DNA of 64,000 nucleotides, taken from a virus. Shown one piece after another: positions 1-51,731 of the stretch; the stretch's first letter is position 1, and each line of letters starts with the position of its first letter. The notes beneath the pieces were generated by a model. It was given only the letters and a program-made list of their open reading frames with translations. It ran no database searches and had not been told where the DNA came from. The stretch is from positions 38,381-102,380 of IMG/VR virus record IMGVR_UViG_3300032116_000062; one strand, 5' to 3'. The translations under genes were made by a program, and so were the position numbers.

Positions 1-1
1 A

Positions 2-967
2 GGTTACGGAAAAAATGTTATAGGTGGTTCGGATATTTGGTGTAATAATTTTATCGAAAATGTTATTCCATTATTAAAGTCCGAATATAAAATAATAGTA
101 GATAATAGGCCTTTACAAAAAGATGAAAATATTATATACACATGGCAAAATGATGAAGAAGTTGATTCTATTTTAGAAAAATGTGAAAAAATAATATTTC
201 TACACCATTCATATAAAGAAAACCCTATAATTAAAAAGTGGTTACATAAAACGTATCTTACATTTGTTCATGCTTTTATTCCAGATATGGTAGGTTTAAA
301 GGATGAATACGAAAACCTAATGACCCGATTAGATTGGCATTGGCAGAAGGATATTTTAGATAACTCTGAAAATATAGTTTGGATTGGTTATGAAAATGAT
401 ACTATTCACACATATTATCCACAAACAAAAACTGTTACAAATTATTATGAATGGAAAAATAAAAAACCATTTACAGAAATAGTTAATAACAGAATAGGTT
501 ATGCGGCAAGATGTGAAACACGAAAGAATGCGGATTATTTGGATTCATTACCTGCATATGTTTTTTCAAATGAATATGATTATAAACGAATGTTGGAAGC
601 ATCAAAAATAAATTCAGAATTTCATATATTTCAAAAATTTGATTATAAATTTCATCAAACATTTTTTAATAAAAATTTTCAAATATTCCACGCAGCGTAT
701 ACAAAAGAACCGTTTGGTTATGCAATATTTGATGCAATAGATAATGGTAAATTACCTATAATAGATTCTCATTGGATGAAAGGAATTAAGTACAGATATA
801 GAGCAATGAATAAACAACAATTTCACTACCAATGGTTACGGATATTGGAAGATGGTTTTGAAAAAAATAAAAAACAATTTGATAGATTGAAAGCAGGACT
901 TGAAAAATACACAGATAAACAAAAATGGGTTTCAGAAATATGCAGTTACTTAACGAAATACTTATAA
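2..967 (+). CDS. GT-B fold (GT4-like) glycosyltransferase, 5'-truncated by window edge
   Basis: Frame open from position 2 (GYGKNVIGGSDIW...), well upstream of the track's 287 start; N-terminal GG motif and C-terminal EPFGYAIFDA resemble GT4 signatures. Confidence 0.65.
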   Translation, partial: GYGKNVIGGSDIWCNNFIENVIPLLKSEYKIIVDNRPLQKDENIIYTWQNDEEVDSILEKCEKIIFLHHSYKENPIIKKWLHKTYLTFVHAFIPDMVGLKDEYENLMTRLDWHWQKDILDNSENIVWIGYENDTIHTYYPQTKTVTNYYEWKNKKPFTEIVNNRIGYAARCETRKNADYLDSLPAYVFSNEYDYKRMLEASKINSEFHIFQKFDYKFHQTFFNKNFQIFHAAYTKEPFGYAIFDAIDNGKLPIIDSHWMKGIKYRYRAMNKQQFHYQWLRILEDGFEKNKKQFDRLKAGLEKYTDKQKWVSEICSYLTKYL

Positions 968-1716
968 AAGAATATTTAACTAACAATCCCATACCGGATG
1001 AATCGGGAGTAGTTAAGTATGAGCCTGTAAAATATAGATGGTCACATGGCGCAACCGATACTCATTTGGGTGATGGTTTATTAGTATATTCTTTGATAAT
1101 GATGAACCGTGCAAAAGTATGTGTCTGTATTGGTAGTGGTGGTGGGTTTATTCCACGTATAATGACGCAGGCGAGAATGGATTTGTGGGAACAAAAAATA
1201 TTTGATGGAAATCCTGCAAAAGAATGGGGTGATATAGGAACAACGATTATAATTGATGCGGCAAATGGAGTTGGTGGGTTTACTGATTGGGTGGATGAAA
1301 ATAGTTTTTTGAGAAATCACTACTCACCGCAAGTTATTTTAAATACATCTGAAAGAGCTTACTATGATTATTTTGTAAGGCAAGATATAAAAATAGATTA
1401 TTTACATATAGATGGTGATCATTCCTATGAAGGAGTTAAAAAAGATTTTGAACTATACTCAACAATTATGTCAGAGAACGGAATCATTACTATACATGAT
1501 ACGGATCAAAAATACCATGATACATTCTTAATCCCCAATAATCAGTTAGATCATTTTGATTCTTTTGATGGGCCCGCAAAATTTATAAATGAATTAGAAA
1601 ATAATACTGAATGGAATTTGGTAAATTTAAAAAATTTCATTATGTTTGATTCAAAAAGACCGACAACTACTGGTATAGCTATAGTTACAAAAAAGAATAA
1701 TAAAAAAAGTGAATAA
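940..1716 (+). CDS. Class I SAM-dependent methyltransferase (Methyltransf_24-like)
   Basis: IGSGGG SAM-binding loop; DYLHIDGDHSYEGVKKDF and IHD motifs; start 940 or 925. Confidence 0.8.
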   Translation: MQLLNEILIKEYLTNNPIPDESGVVKYEPVKYRWSHGATDTHLGDGLLVYSLIMMNRAKVCVCIGSGGGFIPRIMTQARMDLWEQKIFDGNPAKEWGDIGTTIIIDAANGVGGFTDWVDENSFLRNHYSPQVILNTSERAYYDYFVRQDIKIDYLHIDGDHSYEGVKKDFELYSTIMSENGIITIHDTDQKYHDTFLIPNNQLDHFDSFDGPAKFINELENNTEWNLVNLKNFIMFDSKRPTTTGIAIVTKKNNKKSE

Positions 1717-2566
1717 AAAAACAATAAGATTAGTAACTATCACAGGATCTAGAACAAACACTCTACGACATATGCTGCAGCACTATAATGCTTTGGTAGA
1801 TGAAATTTTTGTTGTAGTTTATGAATGGGAAGGATTTAGTACCTATGAATCAGTTTTAGAAATAGTAAATGAATTTCCAAAAGCTAAAATTATTAAAAAA
1901 GTTACAAAAGAAAAATATAATTGGGAATACGTTACAGAACTATATAATGAAATAAAAAACTTATATCCAAAAGATTGGTGGATAGTATCTGATGATGATG
2001 AATTTCATATTTACTCAAATAATTTAGATGAAATAATATCAGATTGTGAAGAATTTGGTTGGGATATGGTCCGTGGTGGTTTTATAGATAGAATCGGTAT
2101 AGATGGTGAATTTGTAGAAATACAAAAAAATAAAAATATATTTAAGCAATTCCCAATGGGTGGATTTTTTAGATACCCTATGAGTGGTGCATGTCCAAAT
2201 AAAGTATGTATTATGAAAGGGTATATACAATTAACACCCGGTCAACACTACGCAATTATAAACGGACAAACTACTTGGAGATGGCAAGGGTGGAATCATC
2301 CGTTAATAGCTCCTGTGGATAGATACAACGTACAGGTACATCATTTTAAATGGGATAGTACGTGCTCTGATAGAATAAGAGATGTAGCATCTATAAATAA
2401 GGATTATGCGTATTCAGAGGAATATAGAAAAATGTATAAAGAATTAGCAAAATCCAGATTTGTTATAGATATAAATAACGAAGATTATATGTTTGAAAAT
2501 ATTGGTGATAGTATAAGTGGATATTCAAAATGGAATAAACTTTTAAATAAAATATTATCAATATAA
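1709..2566 (+). CDS. GT-A fold (GT2-like) glycosyltransferase
   Basis: WWIVSDDDEF DxD motif, late HHFK motif; GTG start overlapping upstream gene. Confidence 0.65.
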   Translation: MNKKTIRLVTITGSRTNTLRHMLQHYNALVDEIFVVVYEWEGFSTYESVLEIVNEFPKAKIIKKVTKEKYNWEYVTELYNEIKNLYPKDWWIVSDDDEFHIYSNNLDEIISDCEEFGWDMVRGGFIDRIGIDGEFVEIQKNKNIFKQFPMGGFFRYPMSGACPNKVCIMKGYIQLTPGQHYAIINGQTTWRWQGWNHPLIAPVDRYNVQVHHFKWDSTCSDRIRDVASINKDYAYSEEYRKMYKELAKSRFVIDINNEDYMFENIGDSISGYSKWNKLLNKILSI

Positions 2567-2567
2567 A

Positions 2568-2599
2568 TTTGGAAAATTATAAAAATAGTTGTATATTAA
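2568..2599 (+). promoter_or_regulatory. Bacteroidota-type sigma70 promoter-like element (-33 TTTG / -7 TAnnTT)
   Basis: TTTG-N20-TATATTAA in intergenic gap; same architecture at 33763-33794. Confidence 0.5.
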
Positions 2600-2622
2600 C
2601 ACATCAAAATTAAATTAAAGTT

Positions 2623-2832
2623 ATGGCAGTCACTAAAAAAAATGAAGAAAGAGATCAAGAAATTTTACTCCTTGAAACCAGAAAAGTAAAGGCTTTAGAA
2701 AAAATAGCCAATTCATTGGATGCGTTGACGATTTGGTTTGAAGAAATCGAAAAAGATGAATGGAGTGAAAGACTTCAATGGTATCTTTATGAATGGCATT
2801 CTAAAAAAATTGCAGGAGATAAAGAAAAATAA
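2623..2832 (+). CDS. Small hypothetical protein
   Basis: 69-aa ORF filling the gap, TAATG-coupled to next gene. Confidence 0.7.
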   Translation: MAVTKKNEERDQEILLLETRKVKALEKIANSLDALTIWFEEIEKDEWSERLQWYLYEWHSKKIAGDKEK

Positions 2833-4262
2833 TGCAAAAACAAAAATTAGGAATAATTGTTCCCTATCGTAATAGGGGTGAACACTTGTCTCAATTTTTG
2901 TTGACGATAAAAAAATATTTATCGAACACCGATATAAAGTATGAACTAATAATAGTAGAACAAGCGGATGATAAACCTTTTAATAGAGGAAAACTACTAA
3001 ATATAGGTGTAAAAAAAGCAATTGAATTTGGATGCAAGTATGTAGCTCTACATGATGTGGATATGTTGCCCATTGATGTAGATTATTCTTATGTCCATAG
3101 ACCTACACATTTAGCTACAAAATTTATTTCTGATAATACTGAAAAAAATATAGTATTTGATGAGTACTTTGGTGGTGTAACTTTATTCCCTATAAATGAG
3201 TATTTAAAAATAAATGGATACTCTAATGAGTATTGGGGATGGGGGTATGAAGATGATGATTTGCTTTTTAGATGTAAAGAAAATTCTTTAGAATTAGATA
3301 CAAAATATTATCCTGTAAAAACACGTAATACGGCTGGATTATATTTTAACGGAAAAGATAGTTATATAACATGTCCAAAACCATTTGGATTGGATAACTA
3401 TACAGTATTCGCATCCTTCGAACCTGATGAAATAAAGTGTGATGAAAATTATGAGTTTGATGAATATGTGGTATTTTCTATACCAGGATATGATACAACG
3501 ATAACATATAATTCATTTAAAAGATATAAATTTGAAACTTGGTCAAAATCAAAAAATGTATTTAGTTTAAAATCTAGCATTGCACCAAAATTAAGAACAG
3601 TCATAGCGGTCACAGTAAACCAATACGATAGGATAATAAAACTATACCAAGATGGTGTATTGGTCGATTCCCTAGAAATAGATTCAAAGGAAAGATTAAT
3701 GCCTTACTTTAATCAGGAGTTTTTTTATATAGGAAAAACCACTACATCCGAATTTAATAGTAGACGACCATTCAAAGGAACAATAGATTACTTTGCAATA
3801 TTTAATCACAGTTTAGAAGAAGCGCAGATAAAAGAAATATCAAATAATAGATATATGGGCCTGACTGATAACTATGGTGATTATATTACTTCACATTGTT
3901 TGGAAGTTTGTTATGACATGAAGATAAGTAAAAAAGATAAATTGATAGATTTATCTTCAAATAATAATGATGCTATTATAAATAATTGTGAAAGAGTTCC
4001 TGTTGTTGATATTGATATGATAACGGAAATAAAGATTCCTTGGAGAAAAGCCGGAACTTTTAAATTATTACCACATAAGGAAAATGGATTTTTTGAAAAC
4101 AAATGGACATTTACCGAAACAAGAAAAAATCAAATAAAATTTTATAACGATGTGTTGGGAGGAAAAACAAACTGGAGAAGAGATGGAATGGATACATTGA
4201 ATTATAAAGAAATAAGTTATACAGACATGAAAGATTACCACTATTTATCAGTATCATTATGA
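2832..4262 (+). CDS. GT7 (beta-1,4-galactosyltransferase family) with inserted LamG/ConA-like lectin domain
   Basis: IVPYRNR, FNRGKLLNIG, HDVD, YFGGV, NGYSNEYWGWGYEDDD; LamG-like segment (LYQDGVLV, FKGTIDYFAIFNHSL). Confidence 0.85.
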   Translation: MQKQKLGIIVPYRNRGEHLSQFLLTIKKYLSNTDIKYELIIVEQADDKPFNRGKLLNIGVKKAIEFGCKYVALHDVDMLPIDVDYSYVHRPTHLATKFISDNTEKNIVFDEYFGGVTLFPINEYLKINGYSNEYWGWGYEDDDLLFRCKENSLELDTKYYPVKTRNTAGLYFNGKDSYITCPKPFGLDNYTVFASFEPDEIKCDENYEFDEYVVFSIPGYDTTITYNSFKRYKFETWSKSKNVFSLKSSIAPKLRTVIAVTVNQYDRIIKLYQDGVLVDSLEIDSKERLMPYFNQEFFYIGKTTTSEFNSRRPFKGTIDYFAIFNHSLEEAQIKEISNNRYMGLTDNYGDYITSHCLEVCYDMKISKKDKLIDLSSNNNDAIINNCERVPVVDIDMITEIKIPWRKAGTFKLLPHKENGFFENKWTFTETRKNQIKFYNDVLGGKTNWRRDGMDTLNYKEISYTDMKDYHYLSVSL

Positions 4263-5722
4263 AATTAGGAGTTTGCGTACCATATAGAAACCGAGAAGCA
4301 CATTTAAGAAGATTTGTTCCAAAAGTTACAGAATTTTTAAACAATGCTGGAATAGAACACACCATCTATCTGGCTCATCAATGTGATGATGAGTTGTTTA
4401 ATAGAGGGTTAATGAAAAACATTGCAGCAAAGCATGCATTTGATGATGGATGTGATTATATTGTATGGCATGATATTGATATGATACCTGAAGATGATAG
4501 TTGTGATTACTCTTTTCCAAAAGATAATCCTGTTCATATTGCTGTCAACATATCCCAATCTGATTATATGTTAAAGTATGAGGAATACTTTGGTGGAGCC
4601 GTTTTATTTACAAAAGAACAGGTACAAAAAACAAATGGGTATTCAAATGATTATTGGGATTGGGGAATGGAGGATGATGACTTATTTTGGAGATGCGTTA
4701 AAGAAGATATGGTAGATAGAACAAAACTTGATTATAATATTAAAAAAATGGTCGGGGTATTTGATGGCAAGGCATCATATATGGAGATACCAAACAGATT
4801 CGGACATATTTTGAATAATTCACATACGGTTTCTATTTTAGTAAAAGCAGATCAGCAAATTGAAAAAGTCCCAATATGGTTGATTGGTGATAATGATAGA
4901 AAGTTTGTTGAATATCCTATATTAAGAAAGCCGGGTTATGATTGGGGAATATCATTTAATAATAGTAGAGCGTATACTGCAATGTTATGGAATAGTAATA
5001 AAGAAAGTATATACCAATGGTTTAAAAGATATGAAAATGAGTGGACTTGGGTAACTATGGTAGTGGATACGATAGATAAAAAAATGCACCTATATTTGAA
5101 CGGAAGAGAAAGTTCTGCACGAAACGGAACAGGAACAGAATCGCCGGTAACATATACAGGATCGTTAAAAAGATATGGTTCAGAACCATTTTATATTGGG
5201 CATACTCCAAGTATAAGTTCAAACGAACCAAACGCATTTTTTAAAGGACAAATATCTGATATAAAAATTTGGGATAGAGTACTATCCGAAACAGAAGTCA
5301 GAAATTTACACAAAGAATATCCAAAAGATAGTTTGTTAGTTCATTATGATTTTCAAAATATAGATAGAGTTAGTAGAAAACTCGTCGATAATATTAGTGG
5401 ATTTCATGCTGATTTTTCCAGAATTTCATTCAAAACAGAAGATATAACAATACCATATGTTGCGTTACCATATAGAAAAAATGGTAGATTTTTTTGTTTG
5501 CCACATAAAACGGAAGGATTGATTAATGAGGGTGGAATGGAAAAGTGGGCAAAAGGTGAAACTACTGCAAGAAATGAACGCAGATATGTTTTAGAAATGC
5601 AACAAGGTAAAATAGATTATAAAAACGATGGTATTTCTAATGTTGATGAAAAATATGAATTAATTGGAGTTGATACAATATACGATGTACATAAAATGAT
5701 AAATGTTAAATGTATAAAATAA
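4259..5722 (+). CDS. Second GT7-LamG paralog
   Basis: VPYRNR, FNRGLMKN, HDID, YFGGA, WDWGMEDDD; LamG segment (LYLNG, FKGQISDIKIWDRVLS). Confidence 0.85.
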   Translation: MKLGVCVPYRNREAHLRRFVPKVTEFLNNAGIEHTIYLAHQCDDELFNRGLMKNIAAKHAFDDGCDYIVWHDIDMIPEDDSCDYSFPKDNPVHIAVNISQSDYMLKYEEYFGGAVLFTKEQVQKTNGYSNDYWDWGMEDDDLFWRCVKEDMVDRTKLDYNIKKMVGVFDGKASYMEIPNRFGHILNNSHTVSILVKADQQIEKVPIWLIGDNDRKFVEYPILRKPGYDWGISFNNSRAYTAMLWNSNKESIYQWFKRYENEWTWVTMVVDTIDKKMHLYLNGRESSARNGTGTESPVTYTGSLKRYGSEPFYIGHTPSISSNEPNAFFKGQISDIKIWDRVLSETEVRNLHKEYPKDSLLVHYDFQNIDRVSRKLVDNISGFHADFSRISFKTEDITIPYVALPYRKNGRFFCLPHKTEGLINEGGMEKWAKGETTARNERRYVLEMQQGKIDYKNDGISNVDEKYELIGVDTIYDVHKMINVKCIK

Positions 5723-5726
5723 AAAT

Positions 5727-7145
5727 ATGGCAGAAAGTAAAATAATAAAAGGTGAAAATCCACTATATGTTCAAGTAAAAAATGAATTAGATTCTGTGGG
5801 AAAGGGAATGTGTTTAGCAAAATGGACACAAGTAACAATGCAACTACAAAGTGGCCACAACCACTCATGCCATCACCCAACCACACACAAAATTTCAGAA
5901 GTAGAGATAGCACGAAACCCATCAGCATTACATAATACTAGATTTAAAAAACTAAAAAGAAAAGAGATGTTAAGTGGCCAAAGACCGGCCGAATGTGAAT
6001 ATTGTTGGAACGTGGAAGATAATTCTGATAGATTTTCTGATAGAGTTTTTAAATCATCAGAGAGTTGGAGTTGGGAGCACAAAGAAGAAATTTTCAATTC
6101 TGATTGGAGAGATGATTATAATCCAAAGTATGTAGAAGTTGCATTTAGTAATACTTGCAATTTTAAGTGTTCTTATTGTGGCCCTTCTTTTAGTACCACT
6201 TGGATGGAAGAAATAGAGCAATATGGTGGATATCCTACATCTGATAATTTTAATGATATAACATGGATGGTTAGAGAAAATAAAATGCCAATACCACAAA
6301 GGGAACATAATCCATACGTTGAAGCATTTTGGAAATGGTGGCCGGAACTATATCACAATCTACATACATTCAGAATAACAGGCGGAGAACCTTTATTATC
6401 TAAAGATACTTGGAGAGTATTAGATTATATTATTAGTGAAAAAAATCCAAATAAAAATCTTAAGTTAGCAATCAATTCGAATTTGGGAGTACCGGATGCT
6501 CTGATTGATAAACTAATTGAAAAAATTAAAAAAATAGAAGATGAAGGTAGAGTTAAAGAATTGATTTTATTTACATCTGCCGACACGTGGGGAGAGCAGG
6601 CAGAGTACATAAGAACGGGATTGGAGTTCAATCGTTTTTGGGATAACATTAATAAAATATTATTGAATTGCCCAAAGATAGTTATAACATTTATGGTAAC
6701 ATACAATGCCTTATCTGTATTTAAATACGATAAACTAATAAAAGAAATTTACAAATTAAAAGAAACCTACGCAAGTCCTTATCGGTATTGGAACTCTGCA
6801 ACGTTTTTAGATTCATCATATTTGAGATATCCGATGCATCAGACCGTGCAAGTATTACCACATCAATTTGCAGAAAATATAATGAATCAAGCAAAACTTG
6901 CAACATTCTTTTCTACACCATCTTTCAATTCAACGCAAATTGGTTATAGTGATGTAGAAGTTCAAAAAATAAAAAGAATTTATGATTGGATGTTAGCACC
7001 GCAAGATGCTGAACAGCAAATGAAAAATAGACATAACTTTTATAAATATTTTAGTGAACATGATAGGCGTAGAGGAACCGACTTTTGCAAAACATTTCCT
7101 GAATTAGAAGAATTTTATAATTTCTGTTCAACAATTACAATATGA
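5727..7145 (+). CDS. Radical SAM enzyme with N-terminal twitch/SPASM-like Cys cluster
   Basis: CNFKCSYC (CxxxCxxC), TGGEP; N-terminal CLAKW...SCHH...CEYC. Confidence 0.9.
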   Translation: MAESKIIKGENPLYVQVKNELDSVGKGMCLAKWTQVTMQLQSGHNHSCHHPTTHKISEVEIARNPSALHNTRFKKLKRKEMLSGQRPAECEYCWNVEDNSDRFSDRVFKSSESWSWEHKEEIFNSDWRDDYNPKYVEVAFSNTCNFKCSYCGPSFSTTWMEEIEQYGGYPTSDNFNDITWMVRENKMPIPQREHNPYVEAFWKWWPELYHNLHTFRITGGEPLLSKDTWRVLDYIISEKNPNKNLKLAINSNLGVPDALIDKLIEKIKKIEDEGRVKELILFTSADTWGEQAEYIRTGLEFNRFWDNINKILLNCPKIVITFMVTYNALSVFKYDKLIKEIYKLKETYASPYRYWNSATFLDSSYLRYPMHQTVQVLPHQFAENIMNQAKLATFFSTPSFNSTQIGYSDVEVQKIKRIYDWMLAPQDAEQQMKNRHNFYKYFSEHDRRRGTDFCKTFPELEEFYNFCSTITI

Positions 7146-7891
7146 GCATAAACATCAATACAAATAATTTATATTTGATATTACCATCAAATGTATCATT
7201 TAAAGAATCTAATATATCAGATTCTATGCAAGGTGATTTTACTTTATTCGCTAGAGTAAAATTGGATAAAGAAAAAATAACAGAAAAAGAAGCATTTATC
7301 ATATCAAGAAGTGGAATGCATTCTGGTATATCGGTATTTAAAAATGAAATAGGAAAGGTATTTTTACAATACACATATTGGTTTGAAAACCCGGAAGATA
7401 AAACAAATTCTATAAAACAAATCCACATAGAATTACAAGATTCTATGTTTGAAGATTTTATAGATGTTTATATGACAAATAGTGATGATAAATCAAAGAT
7501 AACCTGTCATTTAAACGATGAAATAGTTGGAAGTATGATTTATGCTGGATTAGATAAAGTAAATTATACAGATTCCCCATATTGGTTTGGGTGTGGTAGT
7601 ATGTTTACCGAAGAAGATGCGAGAAGCATAGGTGATTTTGAATATCATATTGTATTTTCGGTAAGTAAAAAACTTACAATGTTACAAATAAAAGATTTAG
7701 TAGAAAATTATGATAAAAAATATACTAAAATTATTTTTGAAACATATAAAGTGTTTAACTCCGATTTATCTTTTGCAAAAGATTTTGCATTTTTTTGTGA
7801 TTTCGATGTAACAAATAGATACAAAGTTTGGAATTATGCATTCAACGGAAACTACCCACAAATTTATATAGAAGGCAACGTATATTATTAA
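7142..7891 (+). CDS. Stand-alone LamG/ConA-like beta-sandwich protein (putative)
   Basis: FTLFARVK, SGMHSGISV, PYWFG pattern parallels the lectin inserts of the two GT7 genes. Confidence 0.5.
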   Translation: MSININTNNLYLILPSNVSFKESNISDSMQGDFTLFARVKLDKEKITEKEAFIISRSGMHSGISVFKNEIGKVFLQYTYWFENPEDKTNSIKQIHIELQDSMFEDFIDVYMTNSDDKSKITCHLNDEIVGSMIYAGLDKVNYTDSPYWFGCGSMFTEEDARSIGDFEYHIVFSVSKKLTMLQIKDLVENYDKKYTKIIFETYKVFNSDLSFAKDFAFFCDFDVTNRYKVWNYAFNGNYPQIYIEGNVYY

Positions 7892-7892
7892 T

Positions 7893-8834: not shown

Positions 8835-8836
8835 TT

Positions 8837-9640: not shown

Positions 9641-9641
9641 T

Positions 9642-10538: not shown

Positions 10539-10540
10539 TT

Positions 10541-10599
10541 ATGAATAAATTAATTGTTTTGCACAAGAAATTTTAGAAAAAATAAATAACTATGGATAA
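10541..10599 (+). pseudogene. Possible deletion scar of an SGNH-like gene
   Basis: ATG-MNKLIV joined out of frame at TTTTG to FAQEILEKINNYG-stop, which overlaps the next ATG. Confidence 0.3.
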
Positions 10600-13812: not shown

Positions 13813-13813
13813 T

Positions 13814-15244: not shown

Positions 15245-15246
15245 TT

Positions 15247-16955: not shown

Positions 16956-16977
16956 TTATATTAAATAGATAAGAAAT

Positions 16978-18897
16978 ATGAAAACAGTTATAAAACCTTG
17001 GGGAAAGGAAGAATGGTTAGAATTAAACGACCGATATTGTTACAAACGAATTTACATTAATGCCGGATATAAGACATCATATCAGTATCATAATTTTAAA
17101 AAAGAAACAAATTATATCATTTCGGGCGAAGCAGAAGTGTGGCTTGAAAATGATGAGGGTGTTGTTGAAAAAAAATTAATGAAGGCGGGTGATTACTTTA
17201 ATGTAACACCACCAAAAAAGCACAGAGTAATTGCATTAACTGATATTATTTTACAAGAAGTATCAACGCCTGAAGTTGATGATGTCATTAGAATTAATGA
17301 TGAGTTTGCAAGGGGTGATGGTAAAATAGAAGGTGAACACCAAACACCCGCTGTATTAATATTGGCAGCAGGTTTGGGTACCCGTTTGGAATCTCTTACA
17401 AAAGAAATTAATAAAGCACTTTTACCAATTAACAATCGTGCAATCATTTCACATATTATTGATAAGTTTCCAAAAGATTATGAATTTGTAGTAGCAATTG
17501 GATATAAGGGTGAATTGGTTAAAGAGTATTGTAAATTAGTATTTCCCAATCATAAATTTACGTTTGTGGAAATCGATAACATTGAAGAATCAGGATCAGG
17601 CCCAGGATATTCCGCATTAAAATGTAGAGAGTATTTGCAAAGACCTTTTTATATTACCACTTGCGATTGTTTGATAGATTCTCCAATGCCACATTTGGAT
17701 GGTAATTGGTTGGGAGTACAACCAACTTCTTATCCAGAAAAATATTCAACGGTATTGGTAGATGGAGATAATATTATAAATTATTCAAACAAATCCATAC
17801 ATGGATATAATTTGGCATTCATTGGGCTGGCTGGTATATGGGATTACGAAGTATTTTGGAATAAATTAGAAAGTAGAACCATCAATGGAGAGTTAGTATC
17901 GGCGTTTGAAGCACCATTAGATTATCCTACGTTTAAAATAAAAAAATTAAAATGGTTGGATACAGGTAACATAGATGATTTAAATAAAGCAAAACAATAC
18001 TTTAACGATGTACCATTATCATTACAAAAAGATAATAACGAACTAACATACAGAGAAGGTAATTTATTTATCAAATTTACACCCGATCCAGAGGTATTAA
18101 AAAATAGAATTAAAAGAGCAATTCTATTGAAAGAGCAAATACCTTTAAACTTTGGATCCGTTTCAAATTTCATTTATTACGATTGGGTAGATGGTGATAC
18201 TTTATACGAATTGGATGATTTTAATCTATTTAAACGATTTCTAAACAAAATGGAAAATAATTTAAAAGAGATTACAGATAATTCCATTGAACATATAATA
18301 AATTTTTATATAAATAAAACACATAGTAGAGTACAAAAATTTGTAAATAAAAATGGACATCAATATCACACCTTACCGCATATTATAAATGGAAAAGAAT
18401 ATCCGGCATATGATTCTTTTTTTACAGATGTTGTAAATAATAGGTTTCATAAATTTCAAAGTAATTCTTTTTATAAAAAATTTCATGGAGACCTTCAATT
18501 TGACAATATCATTTTTTCTTCAAAAGAAAATGAATTCAAATATATTGATTGGAGAGAATCTTTTGGAGGATATACGGAGGCCGGAGATATTTACTATGAT
18601 TTAGCAAAACTATATGGTGGGTGTATAATTCCGTATAATAAAATGAAAAATGAAGATAATATAAACTTTGTAGAATGTGATTGTTCTATAAGATATTCAT
18701 ATGATATTTCCGATAATTTGGTTTCCTTTAAAAAGGAATTTGAAAATTGGATTATCAAAATGGGATTTGATATGGATAAAGTAAAAATTATGACAGGTTT
18801 AATATTTTTAAACATGTCACCACTACATGATGAAAAGTTTTCAAAAATGCTATGGTTCAAATCAATTGAAATTCTATATGAGTACGCAGATAAATAA
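16978..18897 (+). CDS. Trifunctional cupin + sugar-phosphate nucleotidyltransferase + APH/choline-kinase-like protein
   Basis: KPWG/SYQYH/KHR cupin; LAAGLGTRL...NKALLP NTase; HGDLQFDN, IDWR, GDIYYDLAKL kinase motifs. Confidence 0.85.
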   Translation: MKTVIKPWGKEEWLELNDRYCYKRIYINAGYKTSYQYHNFKKETNYIISGEAEVWLENDEGVVEKKLMKAGDYFNVTPPKKHRVIALTDIILQEVSTPEVDDVIRINDEFARGDGKIEGEHQTPAVLILAAGLGTRLESLTKEINKALLPINNRAIISHIIDKFPKDYEFVVAIGYKGELVKEYCKLVFPNHKFTFVEIDNIEESGSGPGYSALKCREYLQRPFYITTCDCLIDSPMPHLDGNWLGVQPTSYPEKYSTVLVDGDNIINYSNKSIHGYNLAFIGLAGIWDYEVFWNKLESRTINGELVSAFEAPLDYPTFKIKKLKWLDTGNIDDLNKAKQYFNDVPLSLQKDNNELTYREGNLFIKFTPDPEVLKNRIKRAILLKEQIPLNFGSVSNFIYYDWVDGDTLYELDDFNLFKRFLNKMENNLKEITDNSIEHIINFYINKTHSRVQKFVNKNGHQYHTLPHIINGKEYPAYDSFFTDVVNNRFHKFQSNSFYKKFHGDLQFDNIIFSSKENEFKYIDWRESFGGYTEAGDIYYDLAKLYGGCIIPYNKMKNEDNINFVECDCSIRYSYDISDNLVSFKKEFENWIIKMGFDMDKVKIMTGLIFLNMSPLHDEKFSKMLWFKSIEILYEYADK

Positions 18898-19519
18898 AGA
18901 TACAAAAATATACGGATCATTTTCTAAAACACCCGGAAATAATGGGTGTTTGTTTTTCAATGCTGCATTTGAAAAGTATAATATAAATGCTATATATAAA
19001 TCTTTTTATTCTGATAACATAAAAGAAACCATACAATCCGTCAGACATTTGGGATTTAGTGGTTTTGCATTGAGCATGCCACATAAAGTTGATGTAATAC
19101 CTTATTTGGATTATATGGATGATATATCTAAAGAAATAGGTGCGGTTAATACTGTGATAAATGTGGAAGGTAAACTTACAGGATATAACACAGATTTTTT
19201 TGGAATTGTTGATTTTTTTTCTTATATTAACGTAGGAAAAAATGTAAATATAATTGGAAATGGTGGTTTTAGTAAAGCAATACAATGTGCTTGTAAAAAT
19301 ATGAATATAGAATATAAAATATTTGGAAGAAATGATATAGATAATATATCTTCGATACTGAATGAAACTTTTATAAACGCTACTCCAATTGAAATAAAAT
19401 CAATTTATAGTAGGGTAATAGATTTAAGACCACATACACATTATGGAAAAATAGTTGCCGAAATGCAAGCAAAATATCAATTTAAAATATACACAGGAAT
19501 AGAATATGGCACTACCTAA
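18878..19519 (+). CDS. Shikimate dehydrogenase (AroE)-like NAD(P) oxidoreductase, compact
   Basis: SMPHK, IGAVNT, GYNTD, IIGNGGFS, INATP; likely start 18878. Confidence 0.8.
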   Translation: MSTQINKDTKIYGSFSKTPGNNGCLFFNAAFEKYNINAIYKSFYSDNIKETIQSVRHLGFSGFALSMPHKVDVIPYLDYMDDISKEIGAVNTVINVEGKLTGYNTDFFGIVDFFSYINVGKNVNIIGNGGFSKAIQCACKNMNIEYKIFGRNDIDNISSILNETFINATPIEIKSIYSRVIDLRPHTHYGKIVAEMQAKYQFKIYTGIEYGTT

Positions 19520-20474
19520 TTACTACATATGCCCAATGTCCAAAAATATAGTAGATTCTGTAATAGAAATGGAAAACTCTGCTTTTGGATTACTACCAAC
19601 TCGCAGACAGATAGACTGGGATGGTGGATATGTAAATGGTTGGAATACTAAAAGTTTTTATGAGTATGTAAAAACTAAAAATAAAAATCTTATAATAGAA
19701 AGAGATCATTCCGGCCCAAACCAAGGAGTGAATGAGGATAGTGGGTATGTAAGTCATACTCATGATGCAAATTATTTTGATATAATACATTTAGACCCAT
19801 GGAAAATTGCAAAAAATCATATTGATGGCATAGAAAAAACTGTTTATGCTTTAAAATACATTCATCACCTAAATCCAAATGTTAAGTTTGAAATATTGAC
19901 GGAAGAGGCGATATGGAAATTTACGGATGAAGAAATAATAGATATAATGCAATATCTACTAAATAACTTATCCAAATCGGAGTTCGATAGTATCGAATAT
20001 ATTGTAGTACAATCGGGAGTAGGATTGGATTTGGTTAATAGAAAAAATACAGGAAAATTTGATTTAGAAAAGTTAAAAAAACAATCCTTTTTAATAAAAT
20101 CATTTGGTAAAAAAACAAAAGAACATAATGGTGATTATTTGAACCATAATGAATTGGGAATTCGATTTTCAAATGGATTGGATTGTATAAATATAGGACC
20201 TGAAATAGTGCAGTTAGAAACTCTAACTTATTTAGAAAATATGACCGAAAAACAAATAGATGAATTTTATGAAATATGCCTAAATTCAAGAAAATGGAAA
20301 AGATGGGTCCCATCTGATTTTGATTTTTCGGATAAGAAAAAACTAATACAAGTTTGTGGGCATTATTGTTTTAATCTATACGAATTACCAAAAATAGATG
20401 ATTTAATAAAAGAAAATATTAAAATAAAATTAAAAAATTTACCATCATGTCAAAAATCTTCGCGTTTGATTTAG
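19506..20474 (+). CDS. GatZ/KbaZ (tagatose-phosphate epimerase/aldolase subunit)-like TIM-barrel protein
   Basis: RDHSGP, IHLDP, KEHNGDY, NIGPE motifs. Confidence 0.7.
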   Translation: MALPNYYICPMSKNIVDSVIEMENSAFGLLPTRRQIDWDGGYVNGWNTKSFYEYVKTKNKNLIIERDHSGPNQGVNEDSGYVSHTHDANYFDIIHLDPWKIAKNHIDGIEKTVYALKYIHHLNPNVKFEILTEEAIWKFTDEEIIDIMQYLLNNLSKSEFDSIEYIVVQSGVGLDLVNRKNTGKFDLEKLKKQSFLIKSFGKKTKEHNGDYLNHNELGIRFSNGLDCINIGPEIVQLETLTYLENMTEKQIDEFYEICLNSRKWKRWVPSDFDFSDKKKLIQVCGHYCFNLYELPKIDDLIKENIKIKLKNLPSCQKSSRLI

Positions 20475-20806
20475 ATGATACTTTGTGTTATAGACCAAAG
20501 GATGTTGAACATTTGGGTGGAGATAAATACCACCATTGTAAACCAATAAAAGAAATGATAGACCTATCTAATAGTTTATATGATAAAGGTCACACTATAT
20601 ATATTTATACGGCTCGTGGTATGAAAACATTTGATGGCGATGTAAAGTTAATATATGAAAAACTATATGATTTAACTTTAAAGTGTTTGGATGAGTGGGG
20701 TGTAAGACATCATGGATTATTTATGGGTAAAATTCATTATGATTTACTTATAGATGATAAAGCAATGGATTTGGAAACAGCAAAAAAAGAATTAATAAAA
20801 ATATGA
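20447..20806 (+). CDS. Small HAD phosphatase (EcbF/BcbF capsule-type)
   Basis: FDLDDTL, YTARG, K...IDDKA. Confidence 0.8.
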   Translation: MSKIFAFDLDDTLCYRPKDVEHLGGDKYHHCKPIKEMIDLSNSLYDKGHTIYIYTARGMKTFDGDVKLIYEKLYDLTLKCLDEWGVRHHGLFMGKIHYDLLIDDKAMDLETAKKELIKI

Positions 20807-21774
20807 AAGTCCTAATTACAGGAGGTGCAGGTTATCTGGGTTCTGTTATTGTCGGAAAATTATTAGAATACGGATACGATGTGGTTGTTTTGGATAAATT
20901 ACTATTTAACCAAACATCATTACTTCAATATACATCGAATCCAAATTTTAAATTTATTTATGGAGATGTTCGTAATCAAATAGAATTAGAAAGATTATGT
21001 AATGAATCTGACATAATTATTCCATTGGCAGCAATTGTTGGATTTCCGGCATGTGCATCTGATCCTAAATTGGCAAAAGAAATTAATTACGATCAGATTG
21101 TTAATATTGTAAAATATACAATTGGAAAAGGTAAAAAAATATTATATCCAAATACAAATAGTGGATATGGTATTGCAGAAGGTCAATCCGAGTGTACCGA
21201 AGAATCACCACTTACACCAATATCAGTATACGGACAAACAAAATGTGATGCAGAGAATTTTTTAAGAGTATCAACGGATGCAATTATTTTTAGATTAGCA
21301 ACGGTTTTTGGAGTATCACCAAGAATGAGAACGGATTTATTGGTAAATGATTTTACTTACAAAGCGATAACGGATAAGTACATAGTAGTATTCGAAAAAT
21401 CATTCAAGAGAAATTTTATTCATATAGAAGATGTTGCATCTGCATTTTTATATATGATACAAAATTATGATAAATATAAATCCCAAGTTTTTAATGTAGG
21501 TTTGAGTACTGCAAATCTATCAAAGCAGGAGTTATTAGAGAAGATTCAGGCCCATGTAAACGACTTTGCAGTATCTTATAATGATTACTACGAAGACCCG
21601 GATAAAAGAGATTATATCGTTTCTAACGCAAAAATAGAATCGACAGGTTGGAAACCAATGTGGGATTTGGATATGGGAATTAAACAATTGATTCAGGGGT
21701 ATCAAATGATAGTTCCCAAAATGGGAGCAGAATTCAGAAATGGATTCCCATTGGGTTACGCAAATAAAACATAA
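20803..21774 (+). CDS. NAD-dependent NDP-sugar epimerase/dehydratase (extended SDR)
   Basis: TGGAGYLG, canonical YGQTK, FRLATVFG. Confidence 0.9.
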   Translation: MKVLITGGAGYLGSVIVGKLLEYGYDVVVLDKLLFNQTSLLQYTSNPNFKFIYGDVRNQIELERLCNESDIIIPLAAIVGFPACASDPKLAKEINYDQIVNIVKYTIGKGKKILYPNTNSGYGIAEGQSECTEESPLTPISVYGQTKCDAENFLRVSTDAIIFRLATVFGVSPRMRTDLLVNDFTYKAITDKYIVVFEKSFKRNFIHIEDVASAFLYMIQNYDKYKSQVFNVGLSTANLSKQELLEKIQAHVNDFAVSYNDYYEDPDKRDYIVSNAKIESTGWKPMWDLDMGIKQLIQGYQMIVPKMGAEFRNGFPLGYANKT

Positions 21775-21775
21775 T

Positions 21776-22330
21776 ATGAGTTATAAAGACAAAAAATGGA
21801 ATGATATTGAGGTATCATTCTTAAAACCATTTGCATGTGAAGTGCCTGTATTTTCACCATCCGTTTACAGAGAGTATAGAGGGGAAATATGGACAACATA
21901 CCATAGTGAAATACATCCTGTTATGGATTACATACACTATGATAAGGAAGAAATCAACATTCACGGTAGATTTTCCAAATCATACAAAGGTGTGTTGCGA
22001 GGATTGCATTGGGATACAAAGACTTGGAAATTAGTACAAGCTTTAGTTGGTGATATATTTTTGGTTGTATTGGATATGAGAAAAGATTCACCTACATATG
22101 GTGATTGGAATTCATTTTTATTAACAGAAAAAACTAGAGACCAAGTTTTAGTTCCTCCTGGATTTGCAAATGGACATTACGCATTAACCGATTGTGTATT
22201 TCATTATAACTTATTTTATAAAGGAGATTTTGTTGAAGAAAATGCACAAAATGTGGTTAAGTGGAACGATCCAGAATATCAAATCGAATGGCCAACCGAT
22301 AAACCAATATTACAAAAAAGAGACAGATGA
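21776..22330 (+). CDS. rmlC: dTDP-4-dehydrorhamnose 3,5-epimerase family
   Basis: SYKGVLRGLH, VVLDMRKDSPTYG, VPPGFANG, WNDP; likely start 21776. Confidence 0.85.
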   Translation: MSYKDKKWNDIEVSFLKPFACEVPVFSPSVYREYRGEIWTTYHSEIHPVMDYIHYDKEEINIHGRFSKSYKGVLRGLHWDTKTWKLVQALVGDIFLVVLDMRKDSPTYGDWNSFLLTEKTRDQVLVPPGFANGHYALTDCVFHYNLFYKGDFVEENAQNVVKWNDPEYQIEWPTDKPILQKRDR

Positions 22331-22956
22331 TAAAAAATTTAGAAAAATATCCAGTAGTAAGAGAATCAGAGTATACAGTCGATTCTCTTATTGATTTTGA
22401 AAATTTAATAGTAAAGCACTGGGAGACCGGAAAAATAAAAGGACCCGTACACCTATCAAACGGAAATGAAGAACCACTTATTGAAATATTTAAAAGAATA
22501 AAAAAATCGGATTGGGTTTTTAGTACTTGGCGTTCACATTATCATATACTACTGAAAGGAGTATCTCAATCGTGGATAGAAGAACAAATTGTTAAAGGAA
22601 AATCCATTACATTGTGCAATATTGATGAGAAGTTTTACGCATCTGCAATTGTAGGTGCAACTCTTTCAATTGCATTAGGAACGGCACTATCTATTAAAAG
22701 GTCAGGTGGTGATGATAAAGTTTGGGTATTTGTTGGAGATATGAGTTTTGAAAGCGGTATTTTTTATGAGGTTCATAAATACGCTAGAAACTTCGACCTT
22801 CCTTTGTATTTTGTAGTAGAAGATAATGGTGTTTCAACGTACACACCAACCGAAGTAACATGGAATGTAAAACGTGAAATTCCTGAAGATGTAATTTGGT
22901 ATGATTATAAATCAAAATATCCACATTATGGAAGTGGAAAATGGATAGCATTTTAA
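22327..22956 (+). CDS. Minimal TPP-dependent E1-alpha-like subunit
   Basis: GPVHLSNGNE, WRSHYH, GDMSFESG...VEDN TPP-binding motif; only 209 aa. Confidence 0.85.
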   Translation: MIKNLEKYPVVRESEYTVDSLIDFENLIVKHWETGKIKGPVHLSNGNEEPLIEIFKRIKKSDWVFSTWRSHYHILLKGVSQSWIEEQIVKGKSITLCNIDEKFYASAIVGATLSIALGTALSIKRSGGDDKVWVFVGDMSFESGIFYEVHKYARNFDLPLYFVVEDNGVSTYTPTEVTWNVKREIPEDVIWYDYKSKYPHYGSGKWIAF

Positions 22957-22958
22957 TT

Positions 22959-23891
22959 ATGAAAAAAGTATTAATAACAGGATGTAGTGGATTGGTAGGA
23001 ATCCATTTGGTAAAAAAGTGTTTGGATAAAGGATATGCTGTTGTTGGTGTGGATATTAGATATTCCGATAGTTTACCAATTTCAGATAATTTTACCTTTT
23101 ACCAACTAGATTTAACAATCGAAGATAACATAAAAAACCTTTTCTTTTTTGAAACCCCTGATGTAGTTTTTAATGCATTCGGTGTAAAAGGTTCACCAAT
23201 GAGAGCAAAAAATAATCCAGTTGATTTTTTATATCCATCTTTTAAAATCAATACGGAAATTATTAACCAATGTGCTAAAAACAATATTTGGTTGGTTTTT
23301 GTTAGTTCGGTTGGAGTATATGCACCGGCGGAAAAGTTTGAAGAAGAATCCGTTTGGAAAACATTACCATCCAATGCCGATTGGTTTCCTGCATGGAGTA
23401 AACGAATGGGTGAGTTACTTTTACAATCATACGAAGTACAAACTGGATATAATAAATGGTCTATTATAAGGCCTGCAAACATATTCGGGGAATATGATGA
23501 TTTTAGTGGAAACGGAACGGTCATAGCATCTACCATAAAAAAAGTTTATGATGCAACCGATTCCATCGAAGCTTGGGGTGATGGATCACCTATTAGAGAT
23601 TTTGTTTATGCCGGAGATGTCGCGGATGCGATTATAGATTTGTATCAATATCAGTATCACACTACTATAAATTTTGGATGTGGAGAAGAGATAACCATCA
23701 AAGAAATTATAGAAATGGTTGTAGAAATTAGTGGTAAAAAAATTGATATAAATTGGGATACATCTAAACCAAACGGAGATAAAAGACGACAGATGGATAT
23801 AACAAAACAAACAAAATATAAGATTTTACCAAAAATGGGGATAAAAGAAGGAATTAAAAAAACATATAAATTTTATGAAAAAAACAGATAA
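22959..23891 (+). CDS. GDP-fucose-synthase-like SDR epimerase/reductase
   Basis: TGCSGLVG, RPANIFG, WGDGSPIRDFVY; PAWSK in place of YxxxK. Confidence 0.85.
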   Translation: MKKVLITGCSGLVGIHLVKKCLDKGYAVVGVDIRYSDSLPISDNFTFYQLDLTIEDNIKNLFFFETPDVVFNAFGVKGSPMRAKNNPVDFLYPSFKINTEIINQCAKNNIWLVFVSSVGVYAPAEKFEEESVWKTLPSNADWFPAWSKRMGELLLQSYEVQTGYNKWSIIRPANIFGEYDDFSGNGTVIASTIKKVYDATDSIEAWGDGSPIRDFVYAGDVADAIIDLYQYQYHTTINFGCGEEITIKEIIEMVVEISGKKIDINWDTSKPNGDKRRQMDITKQTKYKILPKMGIKEGIKKTYKFYEKNR

Positions 23892-24870
23892 AATATTAGT
23901 AACGGGAGCAAGTGGATTTATAGGATCCAGATTACTTAAATCATTAATAGAAGCAGGATATACGAATATTAGAGCAGTTACCTATAAAAGAAATTTAACT
24001 AATGATATCCCAAATATAGAAGGTAATTTTGAACATTATAAGGGAGATTTGACAGATGCTAAATTTTGTGAAATAGTATCGAAAGAGGTGGATGTTGTTT
24101 TTCATTGTGCGGCAAATACCACAAATGCATTGGATACAAAAGTAAATCCATTATTACATGTAACTCAAAATGTAGAAATGAATGTAAATCTAATGGAACA
24201 ATCTTGGAAAAATAATGTTCGTAAGTTTATGTTCATATCATCAAATACGGTTTATCCAAATATAGGTAGTGAGTATTGTACTGAAGATATGGAAGTACAA
24301 ACACCGAATATATATCCGGCATATAAAGCAGTTGGTAATATGAAACGATACGGAGAAACACTTTGTGATTTCCTATCCAATCATATTCATAATCCAATGC
24401 AATGTATCATCATCAGACCTTCCAATGCGTATGGTCCAAATGATAAATACGATTACGAAAAATGCCACGTTACTCCTGCAAACATTCGTAAGGTAGCAGA
24501 TGGGTTAAATCCAATACCTGTTTGGGGTGATGGAAGTGAGATTAGAGATATTATTCATGTAGATGATATGGTAAGTGGATTTATTTGCGTAGCAGAAAAC
24601 GTAGATAAATACGATGTTTATAATGTGTGTTATGGTAGAGGATATTCGGTAAATGAAGTACTAAATACCATAAAAGAGATTGAACAAAATTCTAACCCAA
24701 TCGAATATGTTAGTAATAAGGCACCAATGATACCTGTTAGACTACTTTCGAATGATAAACTTCTTAAATTGGGATGGAAACCGAAGTACGATTTAAAAAC
24801 AGGATTAAAAGATGCACTAAATTGGTATAAAGCAAACAAACATTTATTTAACCCAAATTCAAAACCATAA
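23875..24870 (+). CDS. GDP-fucose-synthase-like SDR epimerase/reductase
   Basis: TGASGFIG, RPSNAYGP, CHV, WGDGSEIRD; VGNMK in place of YxxxK. Confidence 0.85.
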   Translation: MKKTDKILVTGASGFIGSRLLKSLIEAGYTNIRAVTYKRNLTNDIPNIEGNFEHYKGDLTDAKFCEIVSKEVDVVFHCAANTTNALDTKVNPLLHVTQNVEMNVNLMEQSWKNNVRKFMFISSNTVYPNIGSEYCTEDMEVQTPNIYPAYKAVGNMKRYGETLCDFLSNHIHNPMQCIIIRPSNAYGPNDKYDYEKCHVTPANIRKVADGLNPIPVWGDGSEIRDIIHVDDMVSGFICVAENVDKYDVYNVCYGRGYSVNEVLNTIKEIEQNSNPIEYVSNKAPMIPVRLLSNDKLLKLGWKPKYDLKTGLKDALNWYKANKHLFNPNSKP

Positions 24871-25412
24871 TGAGTAAGCCGGAATATACACCATATAAAG
24901 ATGCATTATCAAATGCAATGAAATTATTAGGAGAAAAAGATGATACTATATTTATAGGACAGCAGATAGTTTATGCTGGCAATCCTATGAGTACAACGTT
25001 AGGAGATGTATCGAAGGAAAAAATGGTAGAACTACCTGTTATGGAAGAAACCCAAATGGGAATGAGTTTGGGAATAGCAATGACACAAAAAACGGTTATT
25101 ACATTTTATCCTCGCTGGGATTTTATAATATGTGCAGCAAATCAATTGATAAATCATATTGATAAATACGAATTGATGACAGGAAAAAAAGCAAATATAC
25201 TTATTAGATTAGGAAAAGGTTCGGATAAACCATTAGATCCTGGACATCAGCACAAAGGAAATTATTTTGAAGAATTTAAATCTATGTGTAAAAATATAAC
25301 CTTCCACAATTTAGAAAAGTGGGAAGATATAGAACCTGCATACGAACTCGCATACCAAACGGGTGGAGTACATTGTTTAGTTGAATATCCAGAATTATAC
25401 TATAAAAATTAA
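24870..25412 (+). CDS. Minimal TPP-dependent E1-beta/transketolase pyrimidine-binding subunit
   Basis: ELPVMEETQMGMSLG, DFIICAANQLIN, PGHQH; lacks C-terminal domain. Confidence 0.85.
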   Translation: MSKPEYTPYKDALSNAMKLLGEKDDTIFIGQQIVYAGNPMSTTLGDVSKEKMVELPVMEETQMGMSLGIAMTQKTVITFYPRWDFIICAANQLINHIDKYELMTGKKANILIRLGKGSDKPLDPGHQHKGNYFEEFKSMCKNITFHNLEKWEDIEPAYELAYQTGGVHCLVEYPELYYKN

Positions 25413-51683: not shown

Positions 51684-51703
51684 CCATTATAAATTATAAA
51701 AAT

Positions 51704-51731
51704 AAAAACCCTTCAATCGAAGGGTTTTTTT
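51704..51731 (+). terminator. Rho-independent terminator, possibly bidirectional
   Basis: AAAAACCCTTC-AATC-GAAGGGTTTTTTT. Confidence 0.9.

Follow-up and report, generated by a model that had tools for sequence, protein, structure and literature searches.

What does a large, uncultured aquatic phage do with a long block of glycan-building genes of its own, and on what acceptor would their product be assembled? The question is posed by the last 64 kb (positions 38,381 to 102,380; hereafter the window) of IMGVR_UViG_3300032116_000062, a 102,380-bp IMG/VR record with an estimated completeness of 54%. The block comprises 28 plus-strand open reading frames (ORFs) running from window position -19 to 25412, of which the first begins 19 nt before the window (G000:C1:38361; G000 denotes this source record, G001-G003 related genomes, and L numbers individual loci or contigs), and adjacent ORFs overlap at 19 of the 27 junctions. 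Its first seven genes form a conserved core directly downstream of a giant fiber gene. We propose that this phage-owned island O-glycosylates the fibers of the virion in the cytoplasm, and we assign this reading a probability of about 0.45; a cytoplasmic acceptor is likely, and the fiber proteins are the best candidate. An initial reading from the letters of the window (the sequence-only reading) had described a co-oriented, mostly overlapping and self-contained glycan block next to the head genes of a T4-like phage, and this layout has held up well, with reservations about the phage type, the neighboring genes and the acceptor that are taken up below.

The core consists, in order, of a GT-B transferase, a methyltransferase, a GT2-like transferase, a 69-aa protein, two GT7 enzymes and a radical SAM enzyme. 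An IMG/VR scan with the GT7-LamG protein as query yielded 51 loci, against which the contig's proteins were then compared by tblastn. The tandem GT7 (beta4GalT-like) genes at 2832..5722 (starts at 2832 and 4259; plus strand, as is every gene in the window) occur in all 51. Both encode Glyco_transf_7N/7C and Laminin_G_3 domains, with 7N/7C scores above the Pfam cut-offs (74/61 bits for 2832 and 64/69 bits for 4259), and both match beta4GalT1 and beta4GalT7 in the PDB at 1e-27 to 1e-23. Across 16 sequences the motifs HDVD and WGWGxEDDD (H74-D75-x-D77; W137-G138-x-E140-D141-(D142)-D143) are invariant or nearly so, and they align to the DVD and WGGEDDD of beta4GalT1. Judged by their domains, DxD metal site and WGxEDDD loop, the two proteins are GT7-family enzymes. 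Each has a LamG/ConA-like domain of ~220 aa after the EDDD loop, His415 is invariant, and the C-terminal 92 aa gave no beta4GalT match and only chance matches in the PDB search.

The remaining core genes vary in how readily they can be assigned. Core gene 1 (-19..967) encodes a 328-aa putative GT-B transferase of GT4 type with an E-x7-D motif; the pattern EPFGY..F.A(x)D..GK.P is invariant across 14 homologs and the ESM Atlas leads to a viral Glycos_transf_1 cluster (0.97), while Pfam gave no match and PDB searches with the single sequence and with a profile gave only chance matches. Core gene 2 (925..1716; 42 of 51 loci) matches Methyltransf_24 (Pfam, 3e-10) and is, by that family, an O-methyltransferase of the sugar/small-molecule type. 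The third gene (1709..2566; 45 of 51 loci) encodes a GT2-like transferase predicted to have a GT-A fold, with an SDDDE motif and a Glyco_tranf_2_4 match at 0.0018, under the cut-off. The fourth (2623..2832; 44 of 51 loci, 40-84% identity) lies directly 5' of the first GT7 gene, is duplicated in some loci, and encodes a charged 69-aa protein of two helices with nine invariant residues, whose conservation exceeds that of the surrounding enzymes. A reading of this protein and the radical SAM enzyme as a system for ribosomally synthesized and post-translationally modified peptides was rejected, as the conserved charged helix pair lacks core-peptide features. Core gene 7 (5727..7145; 42 loci) encodes a twitch radical SAM enzyme (NF033640, 355 bits against a cut-off of 170), of which many loci hold two to five paralogs.

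This gene order recurs on more than 40 uncultured viral contigs from many samples, at protein identities of 35-98%, and wherever the contig DNA suffices the same upstream neighbors are found, first Mre11-Rad50 and then the fiber. In G001, a complete relative (213.6 kb, 100% complete; TerL 70% identical), the island measures ~17 kb and again lies between a fiber gene and a NadR-like gene with the terminase. A second relative, G002, is 97% complete. These arrangements bear on the possibility that a host polysaccharide locus was mis-assembled onto a phage contig, which the sequence-only reading had named as a refuter and with which the slightly lower guanine-plus-cytosine (GC) content of the block (0.27-0.32, against 0.30-0.37 in the structural region) might seem to agree. 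We regard the chance of this as negligible: strand and gene packing are uniform, GC skew is positive throughout, the core genes fall into virus-only ESM Atlas clusters, and mis-assembly is excluded because both junctions, that with Mre11-Rad50 and the fiber and that with the NadR-like gene, recur in independent assemblies.

Among described phages and cellular genomes, relatives of the core are scarce. No match to the GT7-LamG protein, or to the P family of transferases introduced below, was obtained by tblastn against 50,697 GenBank phage records, which included immuto, Mel-JY01 and huge phages, and neither the block nor the structural half gave any megablast match to a GenBank phage. The radical SAM enzyme matched only RsoM2USA and two Vibrio phages, gp349 of the Ralstonia jumbo phage RsoM2USA being the sole sizeable match (38% identity); this gene (L094:11941-13362) lies in an all-hypothetical region 3' of the gene for a 2540-aa protein. 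Across 185,579 bacterial and archaeal species genomes, full-length GT7-LamG was found on three contigs of metagenome-assembled genomes (MAGs) only, and bacteria otherwise have just the GT7 catalytic part. Two of these contigs, L061 and L062, are filed under Pelagibacterales and Flavobacteriaceae MAGs, and one of them is 248 kb long; since both hold the complete core, arranged as in the phages, they are probably phage DNA that was binned with cellular genomes.

The link from the core to the fibers is one of position and composition. Directly 5' of the island lies the gene for a protein of 1910 aa; the C-terminal domain of this protein is an S74 intramolecular chaperone, and, as in receptor-binding fibers, the N-terminus is conserved and the C-terminus variable. 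The stop codon of the gene and the start of core gene 1 share 4 nt, both here and in six distinct loci (L020 and L046 being the same). Upstream DNA reaches 3 kb or more in 31 loci, and in 27 of these the same strand carries, 0-5 kb upstream, an ORF of 1000 aa or longer whose product has 20-44% Ser+Thr; the encoded proteins are S74 fibers, collagen-like (G-S/T-S)n proteins or coiled coils. In distant phages (TerL 30-33% identical) the core is remote from the head genes and its upstream neighbor is a collagen-like or coiled-coil fiber. The 324-kb jumbo phage L031, for instance, encodes at 184-4149 a 1321-aa collagen-like protein (Pfam Collagen, 280 bits; 44% Ser+Thr) with hundreds of G-S/T-S triplets and a fiber-like C-terminus. 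A first glycan gene that adjoins a structural fiber gene is the arrangement by which virion glycosylation of the mycobacteriophage type is recognized, and it speaks for the fibers as acceptors.

Further candidate acceptors are two coiled-coil fibers of 956 and 1546 aa at 48813..56453 (Pfam coiled-coil; 31% Ser+Thr), which have in common a 340-aa stretch of 56% identity. The motif [ST][GA]S occurs 50 times in the shorter protein (9.9 expected) and 74 times in the longer (15.4 expected); it is nearly absent from the enzymes and three- to fivefold enriched in the virion proteins of this phage. Dense SAS/TAS repeats in both proteins are reminiscent of Ser-rich-repeat adhesins.

Several observations weigh against the fibers as acceptors. 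Immuto and Mel-JY01, which are without the core, show an excess of [ST][GA]S in their virion proteins as well; the motif may therefore be a structural one, and it should not be equated with the sequon of this system. Two locus types, including the G003 type, have no large ORF 5' of the core. Giant ORFs are frequent in this half of the genome (6 in 102 kb) and gene order is conserved across the lineage, so that adjacency is only moderately improbable and carries limited weight; the linkage may reflect ancestry and not function. O-antigen loci, too, usually encode soluble transferases, and three of the ten transferase calls are weak. The cytoplasmic virion-protein acceptor put forward by the sequence-only reading thus stands in part: a cytoplasmic location is likely, and the fiber linkage is circumstantial.

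The syntenic slot of the cultured relative Mel-JY01 holds a gene for a 1226-aa protein with GT4 and GT9/TibC-like domains (L006:4750-8430; deposited as 'methyltransferase FkbM'), directly 3' of two structural proteins with 40% and 26% Ser+Thr. TibC-type enzymes heptosylate adhesin serines in the cytoplasm. This arrangement lends the fiber reading circumstantial support and makes Mel-JY01 itself a candidate for virion glycosylation.

Whether the product could leave the cytoplasm by phage-encoded means was addressed at two levels. A Kyte-Doolittle check of the block ORFs showed no notable transmembrane segment, in agreement with the earlier view that no multi-pass membrane protein is encoded there. 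Beyond the window, the four genomes G000-G003, two of them at least 97% complete, contain no match to PF02397 or PF00953 (initiating phosphoglycosyl transferases of the WbaP/PglC or WecA type; controls positive in 9 and 12 genomes) and none to PF01943, PF04932 or PF01061 (Wzx, Wzy/ligase and ABC-2 permease; controls positive), which extends the described lack of export machinery from the block to the genomes. Without these functions, the phage alone cannot begin or export a lipid-linked glycan. One protein with four transmembrane segments (G000:C1:3612-4766) was considered as an exporter and rejected; it combines N-terminal transmembrane segments with a coiled coil, has no Pfam match and is not Wzx/Wzy-like.

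The phage enzymes could instead serve to remodel the host envelope, by acting at the inner membrane face on undecaprenyl-linked O-antigen, capsule or S-layer intermediates of the host, with the host supplying initiating enzyme, flippase and ligase. The altered surface would then block superinfection or the loss of progeny on debris. The soluble 'LPS/cell-wall' (LPS, lipopolysaccharide) clusters of the large cyanomyoviruses P-SSM2, S-SCSM1 and S-SCSM2R (13 transferases) have been read as such host-surface modifiers (PMC12801897). Non-initiating O-antigen transferases are soluble as well, P-family relatives occur in cyanophage S-SKS1, and the accessory part of the island varies in the manner of O-antigen loci. 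We nevertheless consider envelope remodeling less likely than fiber glycosylation, though more probable than the other alternatives. Initiating transferase, flippase, polymerase, ligase and ABC permease are all absent from the four genomes, a largely new glycan with unusual sugars would need passage via host exporters, the island is coupled to a fiber gene at the head of the structural region, and full-length GT7-LamG is not found in bacterial genomes save on the binned phage contigs.

A second alternative keeps the acceptor in the cytoplasm and places the glycan on a modified DNA base, as protection from restriction enzymes and CRISPR. T4-type phages glucosylate hydroxymethylcytosine (hmC), and T4 beta-glucosyltransferase is among the weaker Foldseek matches of a GT-B enzyme of the island (at 13796). 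Phage GT-A and GT-B enzymes are also known to place di- and trisaccharides on 5hmC, in pathways that cluster with C5-methyltransferase (C5-MTase)/5mYOX or a ThyS homolog (bioRxiv 10.1101/2023.12.21.572611). Pfam scans detected no such base-activating enzyme (ThyS-type, or C5-MTase with 5mYOX) in the block, nor is one found near it. Tet_JBP was not found in G000-G003, a search in which the control genomes likewise gave no match. Among the four genomes a C5-MTase occurs in G002 only; G001 thus carries the island with neither Tet/JBP nor C5-MTase, and its sole ThyA homolog, ~40 kb from the island, shows the PCH and FNIASY motifs in canonical form. The methyltransferase of the core is of the small-molecule Methyltransf_24 type, and no DNA glycan known so far calls for anything near ten transferases, two sugar pathways and four SGNH-like proteins. 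DNA hypermodification, which had been ranked as the main alternative to a virion-protein acceptor, is weakened by these results to the point of appearing very improbable.

If the fibers are the acceptors, the genes 3' of the core might account for the outer part of the glycan. This downstream part varies like an O-antigen locus: depending on the contig, the core is followed by extra radical-SAM paralogs (up to five), by an SDR/RmlC/thiamine diphosphate (ThDP) module, or by a set of P-family and SGNH-like genes. The present phage combines the P-family/SGNH set with the SDR/RmlC/ThDP module and a kinase-nucleotidyltransferase module, the largest version seen. In its closest relative, L014 (radical SAM 98% identical), the P-family genes are ordered differently.

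The variable part of the block opens with a free-standing LamG domain (7142..7891) that, by hhalign (97% to GT7 residues 176-383), is a free copy of the GT7 LamG insert. Three paralogous genes follow (P1-P3; 7893..10538, with starts at 7893, 8837 and 9642) and a fourth lies at 16047..16955 (32% identical to P1); their products belong to a DUF7796-related family of GT-A-fold transferases, recognized by self-BLAST, AlphaFold2 (AF2) modeling and Foldseek. This metagenomic P family has at least 352 members, and its four paralogs here have no Pfam match. The AF2 model (predicted local distance difference test score 91) shows a GT-A fold with GnT-I, glycogenin, GfsA and B3GalT5 as PDB neighbors in Foldseek (probability 1.0), whereas a profile search against PDB sequences gave chance matches only. 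The family's nearest viral look-alikes in BFVD, all uncharacterized, come from Catovirus, Fadolivirus, Tupanvirus, CroV, a chlorovirus and cyanophage S-SKS1. A further transferase, at 13796..15244, is a 482-aa GT-B protein with an ET..FLTEK (GT10-like) motif, for which residues 140-480 of the AF2 model are confident. Its Foldseek matches include OtsA, SdgB, GtfA/B and alpha1,3-FucT; SdgB and GtfA/B glycosylate Ser-rich-repeat adhesins, which we count in favor of fiber glycosylation. The DUF5672 protein at 11473..12246 (Pfam, 1e-10) is a possible transferase. In total, seven transferases are well supported and three are weaker (core gene 1, the gene at 1709 and the DUF5672 protein), which is consistent with the original estimate of roughly ten.

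Tailoring functions are represented by four SGNH-like proteins in addition to the methyltransferase and the radical SAM enzyme. Their assignment comes from GDS/GCS and D..H motifs recognized by eye, and the profile evidence consists of DUF6071 and of Lipase_GDSL_2 at E 0.23. The protein at 10592..11476 matches DUF6071 (Pfam, 1.3e-13), starting with NGDSW and ending with H..H; the two at 12231..13812 (starts at 12231 and 13018) have CGDSFS and FGCSYT in block I and D.GHP in block V, with an ESM lead to DUF6071; and that at 15247..16050 has LGCSWT and D..HHP and gives the Lipase_GDSL_2 match. An all-versus-all hhalign comparison of the block families identified as related pairs only the LamG domain with the GT7 insert and 13018 with 15247 (71%), and connected neither the SGNH-like nor the DUF families to the GT-A family. 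Pfam searches at E up to 10 with ten unassigned ORFs gave nothing useful, and a literature search on DUF5672, on twitch radical SAM enzymes in phages and on Mel-JY01 found nothing.

Two modules are predicted to supply nucleotide sugars. The first (16978..20806; Pfam and NCBIfam) is a sugar-activation module made up of a cupin, nucleotidyltransferase and APH-type kinase fusion (gene at 16978, with the C-terminal kinase motif HGDLQFDN), an AroE-like dehydrogenase, a 322-aa protein and an EcbF-type HAD phosphatase. The second (20803..25412; Pfam), which recurs in 13-21 loci, is a deoxy/branched-sugar module in the order SDR, RmlC-like epimerase, E1alpha-like ThDP half, two SDRs and E1beta-like half. 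The sequence-only reading had listed NDP-sugar enzymes and tailoring enzymes (methyltransferase, SGNH and radical SAM); the two sugar modules, Methyltransf_24 and NF033640 bear this list out, with the SGNH-like proteins called at the level of motifs. A remote contribution to tailoring is also conceivable. A NodU/CmcH-type carbamoyltransferase (Pfam, 1e-66 and 1e-56) is encoded near baseplate genes of the same contig, outside the window (L003:8650-10353, G000:C1), and a homolog adjoins a GT7-LamG pair in L063, so that the carbamoyltransferase might take part in tailoring this glycan from a distant locus.

Methyltransferases, radical SAM enzymes and transferases also occur together in natural-product clusters, and this raises the possibility of a soluble or released glycoconjugate, such as an oligosaccharide in free form, or a small molecule or non-virion protein (the 69-aa protein, for example) bearing the glycan, that would act inside the cell or after lysis. 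The high conservation of the 69-aa protein and the multiplication of radical-SAM paralogs in some relatives would fit such a product. The 69-aa protein is, however, charged and helical, without a leader/core layout or a Ser/Thr/Cys-rich tail, no peptidase, exporter or scaffold-synthesis genes turned up in Pfam scans, and the linkage to fiber genes would be left unexplained. We therefore think this improbable.

For the O-glycosylation of virion fibers, these components suggest the following course. The fusion of anomeric kinase and nucleotidyltransferase with its helpers, and the SDR/RmlC/split-ThDP set, would provide unusual nucleotide sugars, one of them probably a branched 6-deoxy sugar. The seven-gene core would most likely start and extend a glycan on Ser/Thr of the upstream giant fibers and of other Ser-rich fibers, in the cytoplasm and late in infection, with the LamG modules reading the acceptor. 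About ten soluble transferases could build up an oligo- or polysaccharide, to be tailored by O-methylation, by acylation through the SGNH-like enzymes and by twitch radical-SAM modification. The variable downstream genes would diversify the outer glycan among phage strains.

Regulatory sequences provide a weak hint about timing. The box ATATTTAT is present in 12 of 25 intergenic regions (0.84 expected) and lies 10-60 nt, mostly 10-30 nt, 5' of most structural-gene starts, including 13 nt before the ATG of the fiber gene; intergenic examples are at window positions 25552, 32634, 35564, 43510, 44597, 48757, 51745 and 57496. Over the whole window it is strand-biased and not enriched (26 against 23 expected). 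Its placement makes ATATTTAT a candidate for a late promoter element. For the T4 late-promoter box TATAAATA, 21 occurrences were counted where 19 would be expected, which is no enrichment. A scan covering window 1-20000 of the block showed few intergenic gaps, and terminator-like sites were not in excess there. It is plausible that the island is co-transcribed with the fiber gene.

The phage itself belongs to a divergent lineage. Downstream of the block are the head genes, with TerL at 31019, the portal at 33807 and a gp23-type major capsid protein at 41834. Because these proteins share ~52% identity with their counterparts in Flavobacterium phage immuto and Microcystis phage Mel-JY01 (and ~40% with those in Rhodothermus phage RM378), the phage is placed by protein similarity as a distant 'far-T4' relative, and 'T4-like' is correct only in a wide sense. 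The head genes do lie downstream of the block, as first described, but they do not adjoin it: a gene for a 1366-aa NadR/cytidylyltransferase-like protein (25564..29664, plus strand; Pfam) and two small ORFs come between. The NadR-like gene is kept 5' of the terminase in immuto, Mel-JY01 and G001, and it belongs to the backbone flank, outside the island. The window contains no tRNAs. In this phage Mre11 and Rad50 are fused in a single 1042-aa ORF (L004:10250-13378), and a T7-type endonuclease I (Pfam, 3.5e-58) is encoded at L004:8856-9272, although the phage is T4-related.

Precedents exist for large glycan gene clusters in phages, for glycosylated virions of mycobacteriophages and for the glycan machinery of giant viruses. 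What is new here is a core of seven genes kept in order, the way in which this core is coupled to Ser/Thr-rich fiber genes, and several uncharacterized enzyme families. The latter include a GT7 enzyme with an inserted lectin domain, a DUF7796-like GT-A family that giant viruses share, the twitch radical-SAM paralogs and a split ThDP pair for sugar branching. Should the fibers prove to carry the glycan, coated particles would be widespread among large phages that abound in aquatic habitats, and mycobacteriophages would be no special case. Such coats could affect host recognition, particle stability, adhesion to particles or mucus, and evasion of hosts or grazers. With its conserved core and variable tail, the island offers a defined, clonable system in which to address the acceptor question.

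Among the closest known systems are the mycobacteriophages of the Che8 type, in which phage transferases are reported to glycosylate virion proteins (Freeman et al. 2023, as summarized in PMC12619734). According to that summary, they likewise have soluble transferases beside structural genes, without export machinery, and make their virion glycans in the cytoplasm; they are small siphoviruses that use one or two transferases and host sugars to modify the C-termini of capsid and tail-tube proteins. By its gene content, the present island combines roughly ten transferases from other families with sugar pathways of its own and heavy tailoring, and its presumed targets are fibers. The cyanomyovirus clusters resemble it in belonging to large T4-related aquatic phages and in comprising 13-24 transferase, epimerase and RmlC genes without exporters (PMC12801897). 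They differ from it in that GT7-LamG and the P family have no tblastn match in any GenBank phage. The 'moraphages' are large freshwater phages with predicted Bacteroidota hosts, four conserved core glycosyltransferase orthogroups and a major capsid protein near that of Rhodothermus phage RM378, and the island, its core order and the fiber linkage are not described in that work (PMC12619734). Moraphage lineages possibly overlap the core-bearing lineages.

Two further comparisons extend beyond phages. The glycans of the chlorovirus PBCV-1 capsid and of the Mimivirus fibrils are virus-encoded and decorate the virus's own capsid or fibrils in the cytoplasm. Nucleotide-sugar pathways, soluble transferases of several families, methyltransferases and fold relatives of the P family are common to these viruses and the island; unlike it, they are viruses of eukaryotes whose acceptors are known by chemistry, and their gene order shows no similarity to it. 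In bacteria, cytoplasmic O-glycosylation islands include the serine-rich repeat protein/accessory Sec loci (psrP, with about ten transferases), SdgA/B, the BclA rhamnose/anthrose operons and TibC/Aah. Here too, a giant repetitive Ser/Thr-rich fiber gene is followed by many soluble transferases, the sugars being attached to SAS- or G-x-T-type repeats. The GT-B enzyme at 13796 has SdgB and GtfA/B among its fold neighbors, and Mel-JY01 has a TibC-like domain. The bacterial systems differ in being cellular and in relying on secretion machinery of their own, and none was found to be orthologous to the core at the sequence level. On the most far-reaching view, which we rate only slightly below the main reading in probability, large and jumbo phages from aquatic habitats, all uncultured and forming a broad clade, could build a heteroglycan coat that varies between strains and is heavily tailored, on tail fibers that are Ser/Thr-rich, collagen-like or coiled-coil. 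The coat would be produced, if this tentative picture applies, by a seven-gene core containing animal-type GT7 enzymes with a built-in lectin domain, a twitch radical SAM enzyme and the 69-aa protein as a partner, together with an O-antigen-like variable region. By analogy, it might then represent the phage counterpart of both fibril glycosylation in giant viruses and the glycosylation of bacterial Ser-rich-repeat adhesins.

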